Below are positions 27,193 through 45,976 of a DNA stretch of 64,000 nucleotides, one piece after another. Within the stretch, counting starts at the first letter, position 1. Each line of letters opens with the position of its first letter. The notes under the pieces were generated by a model. That model worked only from the letters and a program-made list of their open reading frames with translations. It did no database searches and was not told where the DNA came from. The translations under genes were made by a program, and so were the position numbers. Source of the stretch: Candidatus Poribacteria bacterium (lineage in GTDB: Bacteria; Poribacteria; WGA-4E; WGA-3G); NCBI GenBank assembly GCA_965205015.1, contig OZ242029.1, positions 416,001 to 480,000 on the forward strand. Reading direction: 5' to 3'.

Positions 27193-27245
27193 TTAGCAAA
27201 CGTATGAAGGATTTTTCACGTTTTTAGATTTTTTTGGTAACAGGA

Positions 27246-28544
27246 ATGAACCAACTCGTCTCTATCGGAACCAGCCACCACGTCGCGCCCATTGAATTCA
27301 GAGAAAGGTTGGCGTTTTCCGAAGCACAACTCATTGAATCCCATCAGCACCTGCGTGAATCCGATCAGGTCCAAGAGGCGGTGATCCTCTCCACCTGTAA
27401 TCGAGTAGAGGTCTATGCAGTCCTAAATTCAGTGCGGACTGCCGAAGCCGCCGCCAAGGTGTTGGCTGAATTTCTCTCCCGATGCCATCGGATTGATATG
27501 GCATCACTGAAGAAATGGACGTACCTCCACCATAACTTGGAGACGATCCAGCATCTCTTCAGAGTGACATCCAGTCTCGATTCCATGGTCGTCGGCGAGT
27601 CCCAAATACTCGGTCAAGTCAAAGATGGCTACGACGCCTCACGTTCAGCGGGTAGCACAGGGACTATTCTCAATCGTCTTTTCACCAAAGCCTTCAGCGT
27701 TGGTAAACGCATCCGATCCGAAACGACAATCACCACCGGTGCCGTCTCTATTAGTTACGCCGCCGTTGAACTCGCCAAAAAGATTTTCAATACACTCGAA
27801 GGCAAAACCGTCGCGATTATCGGGGCGGGAGAGATGAGCGAACTCACGGCAAAGCACCTCGTTGCAAACGGGGTCTCCAACGTGATTGTCGCAAATCGCA
27901 CATACGAACGGGCAGTCAAAATCGCAGAGAAGTTTAAGGGAACCCCTCTCACCTACGATAGCGATCTCAATTTCCTCATTGATGCCGATATTGTCATTAG
28001 TTCCACCAACGCTCCCGATTATCTCATCAAGCGACAGCCGCTTGCCGACATCATGCGGAAACGGAAACACCGATACATGTTCCTCATTGACATCGCTGTG
28101 CCACGCGACATTGCGCCGGATGTGAACAAACTCGACGCAGCGTTCCTTTACAATATCGATGATCTGGAAACCGTTGTCGCTTCTAACCTCAAAGACCGGC
28201 AACAGGAAGCAGTCCTCGCTGAACAGATCGTCTCTGAAGAGGCGAAACGGTTCTACGACCAATTGCAAATCTTTCAAGTCAATCCTACGATTAAAGCATT
28301 GCACCAGCAGTTTCGACAGATAGCCGACACCGAATTGCAAGCGTGTTTCTACAAAACATCACTCTCCGACCAGCAGGAGGAAGCCATCGCCTCCATGACG
28401 CAGGCAATCGTCAAGAAACTGCTCCATCATCCGATGCAGAACCTCCGAGGGGCTGTTAACGACGGCGATGCCGATCATGGGCAATATGTTCAGTCCCTAC
28501 AGGAATTGTTCGCCTTGGATGTTAATGATGAAAAGCCAGAATAG
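27246..28544 (+). CDS. hemA: glutamyl-tRNA reductase
   Basis: LSTCNRVE, SLDSMVVGESQILGQVK, IGAGEM, DIAVPRD. Confidence 0.97.
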   Translation: MNQLVSIGTSHHVAPIEFRERLAFSEAQLIESHQHLRESDQVQEAVILSTCNRVEVYAVLNSVRTAEAAAKVLAEFLSRCHRIDMASLKKWTYLHHNLETIQHLFRVTSSLDSMVVGESQILGQVKDGYDASRSAGSTGTILNRLFTKAFSVGKRIRSETTITTGAVSISYAAVELAKKIFNTLEGKTVAIIGAGEMSELTAKHLVANGVSNVIVANRTYERAVKIAEKFKGTPLTYDSDLNFLIDADIVISSTNAPDYLIKRQPLADIMRKRKHRYMFLIDIAVPRDIAPDVNKLDAAFLYNIDDLETVVASNLKDRQQEAVLAEQIVSEEAKRFYDQLQIFQVNPTIKALHQQFRQIADTELQACFYKTSLSDQQEEAIASMTQAIVKKLLHHPMQNLRGAVNDGDADHGQYVQSLQELFALDVNDEKPE

Positions 28545-28550
28545 CAATCA

Positions 28551-29603
28551 ATGGTCAGTAAAATGAAAATTAGAAGCGAAAACAAAGCCCGCAACAACGG
28601 CGCGGGCGACTCGTCGGGAAGGCACGTCAAACATGAAACCCACTCAATTGCTCCGCAAGGGAAAATTAAAAAACTTGTAATTGGTACACGCGGCAGTCAA
28701 CTTGCCCTTTGGCAGTCACAATTCGTCAAAAATCAATTGGAACGCCATTTCCCTACCTTGGAAATCTCCCTGAAGACCATCAAAACCACCGGCGATACAA
28801 TCCAAAACCGCTCGTTAGTTGGACTCGGCAAAGGTGTTTTCACCAAAGAGATAGAAAATGCCCTCTTAACCGGCGGCATCGACCTCGCTGTCCACAGTTT
28901 GAAAGACCTCCCGACAGAATTGCCGGAGGGGCTTTGCATTGCCGCCATTCCGACGCGAGAAGACCCACGCGATGTCCTCGTCACAGATACAGGACTCCCT
29001 TTAGAAGACTTGTCGGAAGGGGCGAAGATCGGCACCACAAGTCCACGCCGAAAGGCGCAGCTCCTCTATATCCGCCCAGATCTGCGAGTCGTTGACGTGC
29101 GAGGCAACATCGATACACGGTTGCGCAAACTTCACGAGACCGACCTCGACGGAATCATCCTCGCCGCCGCGGGCATCAAACGCCTCCTCGAACCAGAAAT
29201 TATCACACAATATTTTGACACAGAACAGATGGTCCCGGCAGTCGGGCAGGGCGCGCTCGCGATTGAAATACGGGAAGGTGACGATAGGGTTGAACAGCTG
29301 CTTCTGCCGCTGAACGACCCCGCAGCAACGGTAGAAATCACAGCGGAAAGGACTGTATTGGAAAGCCTCGGCGGCGGATGCCAAGTGCCGATTGGCGCGC
29401 ATGCGAAACATGTCAACGGTGAACTCTCGCTCATCGGCGCGGTTTGTCATCCAGACGGCACGCGACGCATTGTGGCGCGCACCACGGGAACACCAGATAC
29501 AGCACAGCATTTGGGCGAAGGTGTTGCCGAAAAACTTCGGAACAGTGGCGCAACAGAATTGTTGAAGGAACAGGAGAACGATCAGTCAGTGACCCAAACC
29601 TAA
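28551..29603 (+). CDS. hemC: hydroxymethylbilane synthase with repeat-derived N-terminal extension; last 5 codons and stop come from an inserted element
   Basis: IGTRGSQLALWQ, AVHSLKDLP, GTTSPRR, RGNIDTRL, GGCQVPIG. Confidence 0.96.
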   Translation: MVSKMKIRSENKARNNGAGDSSGRHVKHETHSIAPQGKIKKLVIGTRGSQLALWQSQFVKNQLERHFPTLEISLKTIKTTGDTIQNRSLVGLGKGVFTKEIENALLTGGIDLAVHSLKDLPTELPEGLCIAAIPTREDPRDVLVTDTGLPLEDLSEGAKIGTTSPRRKAQLLYIRPDLRVVDVRGNIDTRLRKLHETDLDGIILAAAGIKRLLEPEIITQYFDTEQMVPAVGQGALAIEIREGDDRVEQLLLPLNDPAATVEITAERTVLESLGGGCQVPIGAHAKHVNGELSLIGAVCHPDGTRRIVARTTGTPDTAQHLGEGVAEKLRNSGATELLKEQENDQSVTQT

Positions 29604-30065
29604 AGGATTGGGCTTGTCCACTACGCCAACCAAGGCTATAGAGTGGGCAAGGGTAACTCATTGACTACCGTAAAATATCGCAGTTTCTGGAGCGTGGTAG
29701 CTCCAAACAATGGTTAGAGAACGCTATACCGAACTGGTAGTAGGTATAGTTAAGGGTGCTCCCCAAGCCTTAACCCTCTTGGAAACTGTGATCGGGATGG
29801 GGCAACATATACCCGCTTTTGCGGAGAGCCGAAAGGTCATTACCTGTTTTCTTGATAGCACCGGGTCAGGTCTCAGTAGTAAGTGGTGACAGCCTTGTGA
29901 ACCGAAGCAGCCCACTGGAAAGAATCGCCTACTGGATTGTGGCGAAAAAACAACCAGCACTTTTTCTATCGGTTTCTTTTTTTTAACCTGGACCTCTGGT
30001 CCTTTCCAAGAGGGCGGTGTTTCCTCCCAAGCCTAAAAGACTTGGGTCTCCACACCGTAATATAG
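29585..30065 (+). mobile_element. non-autonomous IS200/IS605-type element carrying a stand-alone omegaRNA (no intact ORF)
   Basis: starts GTCAGTGACCCAAACCTAAAGGATTGGGCTTG like 44633; shares CATTGACTAC, TATCGCAGT, AGCGTGGTAGC, TGCTCCCCAAG, ACTGTGATC.GGATGGGGCAA with 44633-44835; hairpin end at 30015-30065; removal restores the hemC/cobA ATGA overlap. Confidence 0.85.
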
Positions 30066-31565
30066 ATGAACAAACCGAGCACAGGTACCGTTTACATCGT
30101 AGGTGCTGGTCCCGGCGACAGAAAACTCATCACGCTTAAAGGTGTGGAGTGTCTGCAGCGCGCCGATGTCGTCATTTATGACCTGTTGCTCAACGACAGC
30201 CTGTTGGAACACTGCCCCGCGCACACCGAAAAAATCCAAGCCCCCGACCCGCGACTCCGAACGACCCGCCAAGATGAACTCAACCACTTGCTGATTGAAC
30301 ACGCCAAAGCCGGGAAAACCGTTGTTCGCCTGAAAGGCGGCGATCCCTATATCTTCGGACGCGGCGGCGAAGAAGCCGTTGCGCTCACGGAAGCCGGTAT
30401 CCCATTCGAAGTTGTTCCGGGTATCACATCGGCGATTGCCGCATCAGCGTATGCAGGCATTCCAGTTACACATCGCGACTATGCCTCATCGGTCGCTTTT
30501 GTGACAGGGCATTCCGCGGCATTACATCCAGATTCAAACATTAATTGGTCACACCTCGCCACAGCCGTTGATACGCTCGTTGTCTACATGGGGGTCGCAC
30601 ACCTTCGCCAGATTGTGGAGCGGCTAACAGCACACGGTAGAGATCCGCAAACTCCTGTCAGTTTAGTCCGTCTCGGAACGACACCGCAACAGCATGTCGT
30701 CCAAGGCACCCTCACCGATATTGTGCAAAAAGTGGAAGCAGTGCAACTCAAAAGTCCAGCGGTTATCGTTGTGGGAGAGGTAAACCGGCTACGTGAGCAC
30801 CTCCGATGGTTTGATACCAAACCCCTCTTCGGAAAGCGGATCCTTGTCACGCGCGCCCGAGCACAGGCAAGCGAATTCGCAGACCTGTTGGAAGCAAACG
30901 GCGCAGAAGTCATTCAATTCCCCACGATACAGATTCAACCGATTGCGGGTGTAGACATACCCCCTCCCAACACATACGATTGGGTCATCTTTACGAGCGT
31001 CAACGCCGTTGAAATTCTCTATGAACGTCTACGAGAAAGCGGAAAGGATGCCCGAGCGTTCGGTGGGAGCCGTATCTGCGCAGTCGGCGCGAAAACGGTG
31101 GAAGCTTTAAACCGCATCGGTATCCATCCCGATTTCGTGCCTTCTCACGCCCGCGGAAGTGCTATTGCCTCTGAAATGACAGACGTGAACGGAAAGAAAA
31201 TCCTCCTACCACGTGCGAAAATTGCCACTGCCGATCTGCCCAACGGTTTGCGCGAGAAGGGGGCACAGGTCGATGATGTGCCACTCTACGATACCCTCAA
31301 AGTGGCAAACGAAAACAGCGATGAAATCGAAGCAGACCTTCTGAACGGTAGCATCGACTTCGTCACGTTCACCAGTTCCTCAACGGTTACGAATTTCTTG
31401 GAGATGTTCCGCGCACACGCACCCATGGACTTACTCGCGAATGTCAAGGTCGCCGTGATCGGACCCACAACACAGAAAACGGCACTGGCGCGTGATATAC
31501 GGGTTGATGTGGTTGCGAAGGAGGCATCCGTCGAGAGTCTTGTGGAAGCAATCATTGAGGTATGA
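30066..31565 (+). CDS. cobA-hemD: fused uroporphyrinogen-III C-methyltransferase / uroporphyrinogen-III synthase
   Basis: VGAGPGD, RLKGGDP, VVPGITS; then RILVTRA, IFTSVNAV, TFTSSSTV, IGPTT. Confidence 0.95.
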   Translation: MNKPSTGTVYIVGAGPGDRKLITLKGVECLQRADVVIYDLLLNDSLLEHCPAHTEKIQAPDPRLRTTRQDELNHLLIEHAKAGKTVVRLKGGDPYIFGRGGEEAVALTEAGIPFEVVPGITSAIAASAYAGIPVTHRDYASSVAFVTGHSAALHPDSNINWSHLATAVDTLVVYMGVAHLRQIVERLTAHGRDPQTPVSLVRLGTTPQQHVVQGTLTDIVQKVEAVQLKSPAVIVVGEVNRLREHLRWFDTKPLFGKRILVTRARAQASEFADLLEANGAEVIQFPTIQIQPIAGVDIPPPNTYDWVIFTSVNAVEILYERLRESGKDARAFGGSRICAVGAKTVEALNRIGIHPDFVPSHARGSAIASEMTDVNGKKILLPRAKIATADLPNGLREKGAQVDDVPLYDTLKVANENSDEIEADLLNGSIDFVTFTSSSTVTNFLEMFRAHAPMDLLANVKVAVIGPTTQKTALARDIRVDVVAKEASVESLVEAIIEV

Positions 31566-44632: not shown

Positions 44633-44835
44633 GTCAGTGACCTCGCCCTAAAGGGCGAGGCTTGTGCGAAGCGTATACCAAACGTTCACTCCACAAGTTA
44701 AACCATTGACTACAGTAAACTATCGCAGTATCTTAGCGTGGTAGCCAGTGCTATGTTTCAGATGCTCCCCAAGTCTGATTCCTCTCCGATACTGTGATCT
44801 GGATGGGGCAATATACAACCCGTAAGGGAGATTAC
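44633..44835 (+). ncRNA. omegaRNA scaffold of IsrB
   Basis: structured non-coding region between the element end and isrB; TTGACTA and TGCTCCCCAAG motifs; conserved with 29585-29830. Confidence 0.75.
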
Positions 44836-44846
44836 AAACTCTGTTT

Positions 44847-45845
44847 GTGCCAGTCGTTGATCAAAACCAAAATCCACTGATGCCAACAACACCACAGCGT
44901 GCGGGAAAGTGGATAAAATCAGGAAAAGCCACACCCTTTTGGCGGAACGGTGTGTTTTGTGTCCGTCTGAATATAGAGCCTTCGGATAGATATAAGCAAG
45001 ATATTGCTGTCGGCGTAGACCCCGGCAGTAAGAAAGAGGGCTTTACTGTGAAGTCTGAGGCACACACGTATTTGAATGTGCAAGCGGACGCACACCATAA
45101 AGTCGGTCAGAAAATAAAAAAGCGTCATGAGTTGCGGAGAGGTCGACGTTCCCGTAAGTGTCCGAATCGGAAAAACCGAACCAATCGTCTTGCAAACAGA
45201 GAGCGTATCCCCGCAGGCACACGCGCAAGATGGGATTGGAAGTTGCGTATTCTTGACTATTTATCGAAACTCTATCCAATCACGCATGTGTGTGTTGAGG
45301 ATATAAAGGCACGGACGATACAGCGTGCGAAGAAGTGGAATCAGTCGTTTAGTCCTTTGGAAGTCGGTAAGCAGTGGTTTTACACTGAAGTCAAAAAGCG
45401 GTGGGAGCTCCTAACACTTCAAGGATGGGAAACAAAGGAGATACGCGATAGATTGGGTCTGAAGAAATCGTCTGATAAACTATCAGAAACATTCGATGCA
45501 CATTGTATTGATAGTTGGTGCTTAGCATATCAGACCATCGGCGGTAAATCCATTGTAGACAATACTTCAATCTTCTGTATATCGCCTATCCCTATACGCA
45601 GGCGGGAACTCCACCGTCAGAACCCACAGAAAGGTGGCAAGCGTCCCCGTTATGGGGGCACAAGGTGTCTTGGTATTCCGAAGAATACATTAGTGAAGCA
45701 TATCACAAAAGGACTCCTACGCGTTAGTGAATACCAAAAAGGTTGCTTGACCCTAAGTGAAATCCACAGTAGTAAACAAGTTATACTTAGGGCGAAACCA
45801 GACAGCTATAAGATTTTGAAAAAACTTAACTTTAGATATTCATAA
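44847..45845 (+). CDS. isrB: IsrB RNA-guided nickase (RRXRR family, no HNH)
   Basis: PLMP, RuvC-I GVDPGSK, Arg-rich bridge helix RRGRRSRK, RuvC-II VEDI, RuvC-III HCIDS; 332 aa with no room for HNH. Confidence 0.88.
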   Translation: MPVVDQNQNPLMPTTPQRAGKWIKSGKATPFWRNGVFCVRLNIEPSDRYKQDIAVGVDPGSKKEGFTVKSEAHTYLNVQADAHHKVGQKIKKRHELRRGRRSRKCPNRKNRTNRLANRERIPAGTRARWDWKLRILDYLSKLYPITHVCVEDIKARTIQRAKKWNQSFSPLEVGKQWFYTEVKKRWELLTLQGWETKEIRDRLGLKKSSDKLSETFDAHCIDSWCLAYQTIGGKSIVDNTSIFCISPIPIRRRELHRQNPQKGGKRPRYGGTRCLGIPKNTLVKHITKGLLRVSEYQKGCLTLSEIHSSKQVILRAKPDSYKILKKLNFRYS

Positions 45846-45976
45846 AACAGCGTCTACATCTCCGCCCTAAAGGACGGAGTTTTGACGCTGAAGAATTGAT
45901 AATCTTTTTAATGATCGAAAAAGGGTATAAAACACTACCCTTATCTGACGAATAAACTTAGAAAGGAGTTTTCAAA

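Follow-up and report, generated by a model that had tools for sequence, protein, structure and literature searches.

The window analysed here, a stretch of 64,000 nucleotides (nt) from a Candidatus Poribacteria bacterium, contains a hem operon in which hemA and hemC are followed by a cobA-hemD fusion gene, the product of which shares 91% identity with proteins of Candidatus Poribacteria assemblies. Between hemC and cobA-hemD lies a 481-nt insert (positions 29585-30065), a solo, that is protein-less, omegaRNA element of the IS200/IS605 or ISC1 kind, and this element, its mobility and the placement of its relatives at the starts of host genes are the subject of the present work. The insert has changed both of its neighbours. 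The final five codons of hemC and its stop codon (29586-29603, reading SVTQT and stop, with the stop codon at 29601-29603) are insert-derived, and the AGGAG that once stood ~8 nt 5' of the cobA-hemD ATG is now displaced by a further 481 nt, leaving cobA-hemD in the filled allele without a Shine-Dalgarno (SD) sequence at the normal distance. Both effects had been claimed in an earlier note on this DNA, and both can be read directly in the sequence.

The 5' end of the element (GTCAGTGACC...) is common to the RNA region upstream of an IsrB-like gene located elsewhere in the window (from position 44633), and three long core motifs link the two copies, each occurring exactly twice in the window against 0.00-0.01 occurrences expected from shuffled sequences. 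The protein encoded by the IsrB-like gene matches the solved IsrB of Desulfovirgula (DtIsrB, 8DMB) with an E value of 2e-34 (residues 1-275), carries PLMPT at residues 10-14, and at 332 amino acids is too short for an HNH insert. In the hem insert, the longest open reading frames (ORFs) encode 59, 55, and 42 amino acids, none of them IsrB-sized, in agreement with the earlier description of an element that shares the ends and core motifs of the IsrB copy and has no intact ORF.

The identity of the RNA was assessed with a covariance model, R1, built from eight IsrB-linked omegaRNA 5' regions of other Poribacteria genomes, with no window or solo sequences among them. R1 matches 29585-29821 with 128.7 bits (E ~1e-33) over model positions 1-195 of 195, and 44633-44827 with 209 bits, these being the only two R1 matches in the window. 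The Rfam family HEARO (RF02033), whose gathering score is 83 bits, reaches 29.8 bits over 29585-29727 (E = 6.7e-4, 1.6 kb searched), with the first stem and hairpin of its consensus matched by the element, and no Rfam family reaches its gathering score anywhere in the window. Because the IsrB-linked copy at 44633 also falls below the HEARO gathering score (21.7 bits), the Rfam model does not cover this lineage. The stand-alone omegaRNA proposed in the earlier note is therefore recovered over the full length of the IsrB-linked model and by covariation, whilst the part of that proposal that looked to HEARO for a match is met with a sub-threshold score only.

The predicted fold of the whole element is only mildly better than that of shuffled sequences (z = -2.33), and covariation was hence used instead. 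Across 14 full-length solo copies from different genomes, 29 of the 50 base pairs assigned by RNAalifold show at least one compensatory double change, and diverged solo subfamilies have in common ~375 nt of conserved, covarying scaffold. The element's two hairpins (5' and 3') carry a similar CCTAAAGG-type loop, like the ends of IS200/IS605 elements, with compensatory changes keeping both hairpins, and the element has no terminal inverted repeats. A 53-nt inserted stem-loop, missing from the IsrB-linked copies, occupies the place of a 14-nt one in the window scaffold. We conclude that the element is an IsrB-type omegaRNA under structural constraint that lacks a nuclease gene. The last ~70 nt of the element (29994-30065) are 90% identical to a TnpB-type end (locus L111), with the omegaRNA part 81% identical to a solo copy (L081), and from these similarities the window copy looks recombinant.

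The element is polymorphic. Contigs of four public runs were compared with positions 29200-30500; these are DNA contigs, and as such are silent on transcripts. One of them (X4, 2049 nt), from a sponge metagenome of a study other than that of the best-matching runs, agrees with 29200-29584 apart from one letter and with 30066-30500 throughout, and its joint skips exactly 481 nt, with ends GT..AG and no positional ambiguity. The empty allele reads ...GATCA/ATGAAC... (the slash marking the insertion point), where CAA-TGA closes hemC and ATG opens cobA-hemD. The target is not duplicated, a single ATGA being found on the 3' side of the element. The exact insertion at the hemC/cobA-hemD ATGA overlap that the earlier note had deduced is thus observed as a filled and an empty allele, and the junction it predicted for relatives lacking the element is present in L002, L008, L013, and L014, the closest, with the same N-terminus, among 80 related loci, and in these four the hemC stop and the cobA-hemD start overlap in ATGA. 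The same overlap is seen in L005, together with an extra repeat upstream. At the uninterrupted junctions of relatives, AGGAG or GGGGA lies ~8-10 nt upstream of the start.

Read depth and copies at other sites tell of mobility. The element contig of X3 has a depth of ~1894 compared with 400-550 for its flanks (~4-fold), that of X1 a depth of ~510-550 compared with 214 for the flank (~2.5-fold), and both assemblies are interrupted at 29585 and past 30071, from where several different sequences continue. X5 contains an identical element (0 differing letters, 1 gap) between other flanks, and sets of 462-463-nt copies with 98-100% identity are found in the related genomes G039 and G049. Filled and empty alleles coexist, the same population lineage being present with and without the element, and this coexistence, together with the identical copies at other sites, indicates recent transposition. 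The features of the locus, and those of the IsrB-bearing copy, are collected in Table 1.

Table 1. Positions of the hem genes, the solo element with its parts, and the IsrB-bearing copy in the window.
Feature	Position	Strand	Basis and remarks
hemA	27234-28544		Pfam
hemC, porphobilinogen deaminase	28551-29603	+	ORF list; Pfam Porphobil_deam and Porphobil_deamC
Predicted guide-encoding 5' flank, ~16-20 nt of the hemC 3' end	29565-29584	+	Predicted from position and IsrB/IscB omegaRNA architecture
Solo (protein-less) omegaRNA element, IS200/IS605 / ISC1 kind, 481 nt	29585-30065	+	Exact contig skip, multi-copy depth, related copies elsewhere
IsrB-type omegaRNA scaffold, 5' part (237 nt)	29585-29821	+	Model R1, sub-threshold HEARO, compensatory pairs
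Right-end subterminal hairpin	29593-29613	+	Within the omegaRNA scaffold
Solo-family-specific domain	29822-29993	+	Conserved among solos, absent from IsrB-bearing copies; alignments, BLAST
3' end (left end in canonical IS200/IS605 terms)	29994-30065	+	nhmmer survey, covariation, BLAST; most like the ends of TnpB-bearing relatives
Nested terminal hairpin	30013-30057	+	Followed by an 8-nt A/U-rich tail, 30058-30065
ATGA, target/target-adjacent motif (TAM) tetranucleotide	30066-30069	+	Pre-existing, unduplicated; ATG is the cobA-hemD start, TGA the hemC stop of the empty allele
cobA-hemD fusion, uroporphyrinogen-III methyltransferase and synthase	30066-31565	+	ORF list; Pfam TP_methylase and HEM4; intact
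IsrB-bearing element	44633-45898	+	omegaRNA from 44633, IsrB ORF, terminal hairpin; 3' boundary by analogy only
IsrB ORF, 332 amino acids	44847-45845	+	PF14239 (RRXRR), E = 2.2e-31

Relatives of the element are numerous in the sponge-symbiont genomes of other Poribacteria. An nhmmer model of the 3' terminal hairpin recovered 78 distinct ends in the retrieved loci, the tetranucleotide immediately 3' being ATGA in 47, TTGA in 11, GTAA in nine, GTGA in six, ATAA in four, and unclassed in one (L110). Hits that did not span model positions up to 5 and from 40 on, mostly cross-hits to the 5' hairpin, were left out; L165 gave no full 3' end hit, and L091, with an ATGG flank, lies outside the 78-end table. 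Copies with both ends found include a solo class of 325-547 nt, an IsrB class of about 1206-1274 nt with IsrB on the same strand, and a third class of about 1441-1526 nt with an ORF of 400-440 amino acids on the opposite strand, which by size, strand, and shared ends are taken as TnpB-type. Subfamilies of the terminal hairpin track the flanking tetranucleotide (ATGA, GTGA, (CCC)TTGA, ATAA, and GTAA; loci L081-L164), and it appears that target (or TAM) and end sequence have diversified in concert. Many hits in G039 and G049 cover only query positions 166-462 or 277-462 at 71-77% identity, these copies being 409-449-nt solo subfamilies with diverged 5' parts; for G039 the best 40 of 174 first-look candidates were scored, and copy numbers are lower bounds. 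Y1 transposase genes (PF01797) are present in all five related genomes searched and IsrB-like genes (PF14239) in four of the five, with 28 matches in G039 and nine in G049. At one gene start (MNILMLRHSAGFEH...) two different elements are found, in G001 (L088) a TnpB-type one of 1497 nt and in G039 (L160) a 440-nt solo that has a different 3' tail, which suggests that the site either is used repeatedly or has seen one element replace the other.

The positions of these copies relative to host genes are far from even. We define a start copy as an ATGA-flanked copy whose ATG opens a same-strand, in-frame ORF of at least 100 amino acids. In a first survey, with ends found using the window's own 3' end in 5 + 61 genomes, 32 of 47 ATGA copies (68%) are start copies, rising to 34 of 47 where ORFs of at least 70 amino acids are allowed, compared with 220 of 1243 other ATGA sites in the same loci (17.7%). 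Under a stricter null, restricted to ATGA sites at which an insertion would not break a gene, 79 sites are start-like against 295 intergenic (21%). A second survey, seeded with a different solo copy and carried out in G039 and G049, places 19 of 39 copies (49%) at starts. Both surveys together give 51 of 86, or 47 of 82 unique flanks once near-identical copies are merged, a share ~3 times that of non-disruptive ATGA sites (binomial p ~1e-12 against 21%, for copies that are related and not independent). Copies away from starts are placed in a similar way, with a same-strand ORF of at least 80 amino acids beginning within ~400 nt of 31 of 35 unique non-start copies, several of which lie just upstream of that gene's SD; altogether, 78 of 82 unique copies are at or upstream of a co-oriented ORF. 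The family, and above all its solo members, is thus shown to occupy 5' leaders of host genes in the sense direction, and most often the ATG of its target is the start codon.

The gene starts themselves were examined by in-silico excision and by domain content. In 35 two-ended copies, excision leaves a frame that closes within 16 codons upstream in 29 cases and within 38-63 codons in four, with two reaching the edge of the locus, and since the upstream frame closes within so few codons the start copies are not internal methionines of broken genes. Pfam profiles on ten downstream proteins begin within the first 26 residues in seven (among them a RecN-like protein at residue 3-5, FolP at 17, MinE at 15, a GFO_IDH_MocA oxidoreductase at 6, and YjeF_N at 26), whilst the domains of TrpB-like, GHMP-kinase-like, and L15 proteins begin at residues 69, 90, and 78 and neither back nor contradict the start; many other downstream proteins have, by eye, signal-peptide-like N-termini. 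Solo copies are at starts in 37 of 62 cases compared with five of 12 for cargo-bearing copies. For three of six GTGA-flanked copies a GTG start is plausible by eye, given the ORF length and the N-terminal sequence. One in 11 TTGA-class ends (L102) has an in-frame ORF of at least 100 amino acids, the true start of which is by eye a later ATG, and because L102 alone has such an ORF the CCCTTGA subfamily is not at starts.

The earlier note had further proposed that an ATGA target steers copies to stop/start overlaps, and this does not hold as a general rule. Of 41 two-ended copies flanked by ATGA or GTGA, two (L086 and the window copy) lie where an upstream ORF of 100 codons or more overlaps by 4 nt, and of 39 in the second set none does. 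Because overlaps are this few, the stop/start-overlap rule becomes a special case of a start-codon and leader rule. In G049, a 463-nt solo copy (L154) lies directly 5' of the start of ribosomal protein L15 (MKLNELKPAPG...). In most bacteria, the gene for L15 is located within a tightly packed ribosomal operon.

Many copies carry an SD-like motif near the 3' end. AGGAG or AGGAGG lies directly 5' of the terminal hairpin, followed by a 7-10-nt A/U tail before the ATG, and an SD-like motif by the terminal hairpin is present in 35 of 38 start copies compared with eight of 15 non-start copies (Fisher p = 0.003, the copies not being independent). In AGGAG-type copies, the motif is predicted to be mostly unpaired while the hairpin forms. 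A precedent for such an arrangement is the split ribosome-binding site of phage T4 gene 38 / gene 25, in which a hairpin between the SD and the start codon brings the two together. A strict SD-like motif is found in only 12 of 35 reconstructed empty sites, which suggests that the phylum may often do without an SD.

Cas9 and Cas12 have their ancestors in OMEGA systems (IscB, IsrB, and TnpB with the respective omegaRNAs), the natural biology of which is still under study. ISC1/IsrB elements have been described with a 5'-GTCA end and insertion at N/ATGA without duplication, and their ends and target are common to antisense TnpB elements (Kapitonov 2016, PMC4810608). ISC1-1_MA of Microcystis (PMC4810608) resembles the family of the window in its 5'-GTCA, its subterminal hairpins, and its insertion at N/ATGA without duplication, as well as in termini and target shared with IS605B elements bearing an antisense TnpB and in its presumed mobilisation by Y1 in trans. 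Unlike ISC1-1_MA, the window element is without an IsrB gene, and its family adds a conserved RNA domain. IsrB employs an omegaRNA of ~300 nt and an NTGA or NTG TAM, and stand-alone omegaRNAs are mentioned (Hirano 2022, PMC9581776). In common with the IsrB omegaRNA or HEARO (RF02033; PMC9581776), the scaffold of the window element lies directly 3' of a predicted flank-derived guide, with an NTGA-type motif 3' of the target; in contrast to it, the window copy scores far below the gathering threshold, contains the extra 53-nt stem-loop, and is followed by no nuclease ORF. Stand-alone omegaRNAs that act in trans with IscB (Altae-Tran 2021, as cited in PMC9581776) likewise have no nuclease gene beside them, with nuclease-bearing copies elsewhere in the same genomes, whereas the family of the window is IsrB-type and transposing, with both ends intact and a location at host starts and leaders. 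PATEs (PMC4810608, Fig. 4 legend) are similarly short, non-coding, and multi-copy, with both transposase-recognised hairpin ends, however they are defined by their ends alone, and the window family keeps several hundred bases of structured guide-RNA scaffold.

In the Meers preprint, the omegaRNA adjoins the transposon's right end and is co-oriented with the upstream gene, and the orientation bias shown there for IscB (Extended Data Fig. 1c legend) has a parallel in the present family, whose elements also run parallel to neighbouring host genes; such co-orientation fits a dependence on host transcription. That legend, unlike our surveys, measures the distance from iscB's own start codon to the nearest upstream ORF; the term 'start codon' occurs nowhere else in the text of the preprint, in which no report was found of elements inserted at a downstream host gene's start codon. 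The same term has no occurrences in the main text of Kapitonov 2016 (PMC4810608), and start-codon placement of such elements was not found described in the portions of the IsrB/HEARO/ISC/TnpB literature searched, supplements being outside the search. Within these portions, the background on which the earlier note drew is in print; they describe an omegaRNA at the right end with a guide from the flank, the N/ATGA target, and the NTGA/NTG TAM of IsrB. Prior work thus already covers omegaRNAs that stand alone, ATGA as a target, and a bias in orientation, whilst, as far as the cited portions extend, a transposing and structurally conserved solo family with an extra domain, its abundance relative to IsrB genes, and its start-codon and leader placement appear to be new.

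We consider it likely that 29585-30065 is a non-autonomous IS200/IS605 member of the ISC1/IsrB kind, which has lost its nuclease gene and kept the complete omegaRNA scaffold along with both transposase-recognised ends. A promoter scan of 29400-30200 returned no sigma-70-like promoter (0 sites), and the two terminator-like sites in this interval are not above shuffle level. A conserved hairpin with a T-rich tract at ~29935-29987 was considered as a terminator and rejected, as it fails the scan criteria and the families of G039 and G049 are without the T-tract. In the mechanism that we propose, the promoterless element, co-oriented with the hem operon, would be transcribed by read-through from hemA-hemC, yielding an RNA that joins a guide (16-20 nt of the hemC 3' end) to the scaffold. 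The predicted guide flank (29565-29584) lies directly 5' of ATGA in the empty allele. IsrB made elsewhere would bind the solo RNA and nick the empty site, at which the guide match is followed by ATGA, either after excision of the element or in an element-free sister chromosome, and repair using the filled copy would bring the element back. At the filled site GTCA follows the guide match, and this site would therefore be spared. Several reasons may underlie the placement of the family, namely that ATGA(A/T) is the target, that the element would depend on host transcription, and that insertions at such sites could be tolerated, with the element's end predicted to offer an unstructured A/U-rich tail and often an exposed AGGAG(G) in replacement of the displaced ribosome-binding site.

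A bolder reading, which we regard as possible though doubtful, is that solo omegaRNAs are start-codon-seeking mobile guide RNAs. The target (ATGA, with its sister GTGA) would here be the initiation codon, the host promoter and leader would give both transcription and guide, and the end would be a portable ribosome-binding module (AGGAG(G), compact hairpin, short A/U tail) that lets the element sit between SD and ATG. If this is true, dozens of host genes per genome (including those for L15, RecN-like, TrpB-like, MinE, and CobA-HemD) would be translated from transposon-supplied leaders, and IsrB bound to such leaders could couple transposon activity to the expression of host genes.

A number of observations weigh against these proposals. 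The sole IsrB gene of the window sits in a copy flanked by ATAA (45899-45902, the boundary being placed by analogy), not by ATGA, and a cognate ATGA-reading IsrB in the organism is assumed; on the other hand, IsrB-bearing elements that are 72-80% DNA-identical to that of the window (~900-1040 nt) carry an ATGA flank. Copies are akin to one another, and some insertions are orthologous between G039 and G049, such that the Fisher and binomial figures overstate independence; gene starts were called by ORF length with a handful of Pfam checks rather than taken from curated annotation; and the share of start copies is lower in the second survey than in the first (49% compared with 68%). A GAGGG-type motif is also present in eight of 11 TTGA-class and seven of 13 NTAA-class ends, which are not at starts, and in IsrB-bearing copies AGGAG lies where the C-terminus of IsrB is probably encoded. 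In the window copy itself, GAGGG is predicted to be paired (probability of being unpaired 0.13), with the AUG half open (0.46), and this motif was rejected as an SD for cobA-hemD on account of its pairing and of its presence in non-start subfamilies. On these grounds, the idea of a transposon-supplied SD is weak, and it is more likely that cobA-hemD would be translated by SD-independent initiation on the A/U-rich tail.

Other explanations of the element were weighed against our preferred reading of a mobile, nuclease-less omegaRNA element. Were it an inert and decaying deletion remnant of one IsrB element, immobile and without RNA function, the lack of an IsrB ORF and the sub-threshold score of Rfam HEARO would follow, however the solos form a conserved family of their own with a domain common to them and lacking in IsrB-bearing copies, their stems are kept by compensatory changes, identical copies occur at other sites alongside an empty allele, and near-identical multi-copy sets are present in G039 and G049, which together render this account scarcely credible. 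A plain PATE-like passenger of Y1 transposase would need no more than its two ends to transpose, as is the case for IS200/IS605 elements (PMC4810608); its omegaRNA would guide no nuclease, and its placement would reflect the ATGA target and the loss of harmful insertions. The Y1 transposase genes in all five related genomes and the TnpB-bearing relatives with the same ends and targets fit this picture, which we nevertheless judge unlikely, since ~375 nt of covarying scaffold far exceeds the need of ends, the start share is ~3 times the non-disruptive ATGA expectation, and the location of 78 of 82 unique copies at or upstream of a co-oriented ORF is not predicted by target choice on its own.

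The location in 5' leaders and at start codons might instead point to host-adopted or incidental leader-RNA regulators, which with or without IsrB would set the translation or stability of the downstream message, the end of the element acting as a portable ribosome-binding site. This would be in keeping with the exposed AGGAG(G) 5' of a stable terminal hairpin with a 7-10-nt tail in the large families of G039 and G049, and with the essential or housekeeping genes affected (L15, RecN-like, TrpB-like, MinE, and cobA-hemD), all of whose ORFs are intact. The motif is, however, not specific to start copies and is predicted to be paired in the window copy, and the polymorphism and near-identical copies indicate a selfish recent mover in place of a fixed regulator, making such a role very unlikely. 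Removal of the element from the hem mRNA by IStron-like self-splicing or processing, which would restore the coupling of hemC and cobA-hemD, has a parallel in IS605 relatives that, according to a review, can combine with self-splicing introns. We consider it extremely unlikely, as searches at gathering score across the window, and at E values up to 10 across 29000-30600, found no group I/II intron or ribozyme match, and the GT..AG ends are those of the DNA element itself, matched by an empty allele in DNA.

The locus provides a natural, base-exact filled/empty pair for an IsrB-type solo guide RNA, which is useful for questions of trans action and retention, and the family is evidence that an RNA-only derivative, coding for no protein, can become more common than the nuclease-bearing elements it came from and still keep its RNA fold. 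If the placement results from dependence on host transcription together with a transposon-supplied translation start, it bears on how elements minimise harm, on promoterless guide expression, and on the tolerance of sponge symbionts for high transposon loads. If nothing but target choice and selection lies behind it, the locus nevertheless adds a clean new member to a known class.

Two weak Rfam matches near the element were dismissed as chance, these being a Moco-riboswitch-like match on the minus strand (29983-30131; 16.1 bits, E = 1.3), which covers the 3' end of the element and the start of cobA-hemD, and a SAM-Chlorobi-like match (E = 7.6). The junction of hemC and cobA-hemD is also interrupted or extended in relatives by other sequences, with a tandem duplication containing a GGGAATCGGAGTTCCC hairpin in L005 (3905-3990), a 457-nt spacer in L001 (3545-4000), and a 142-nt stretch upstream of position 4001 in L004, L007, L011, and L012 that may lengthen the N-terminus of CobA; in none of these six loci does the insert match the element end models. 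In a more distant Poribacteria genome, an element with the same two ends is present at an ATGA within the last codons of hemC (L074, 2432-3845), where it carries a 510-amino-acid ORF on the opposite strand that is TnpB-like by eye. Its uninterrupted counterpart in L075 reads ...GAGA/ATGAAATGTGA..., and the TnpB-type relative is an independent hit on the hemC/cobA-hemD junction.

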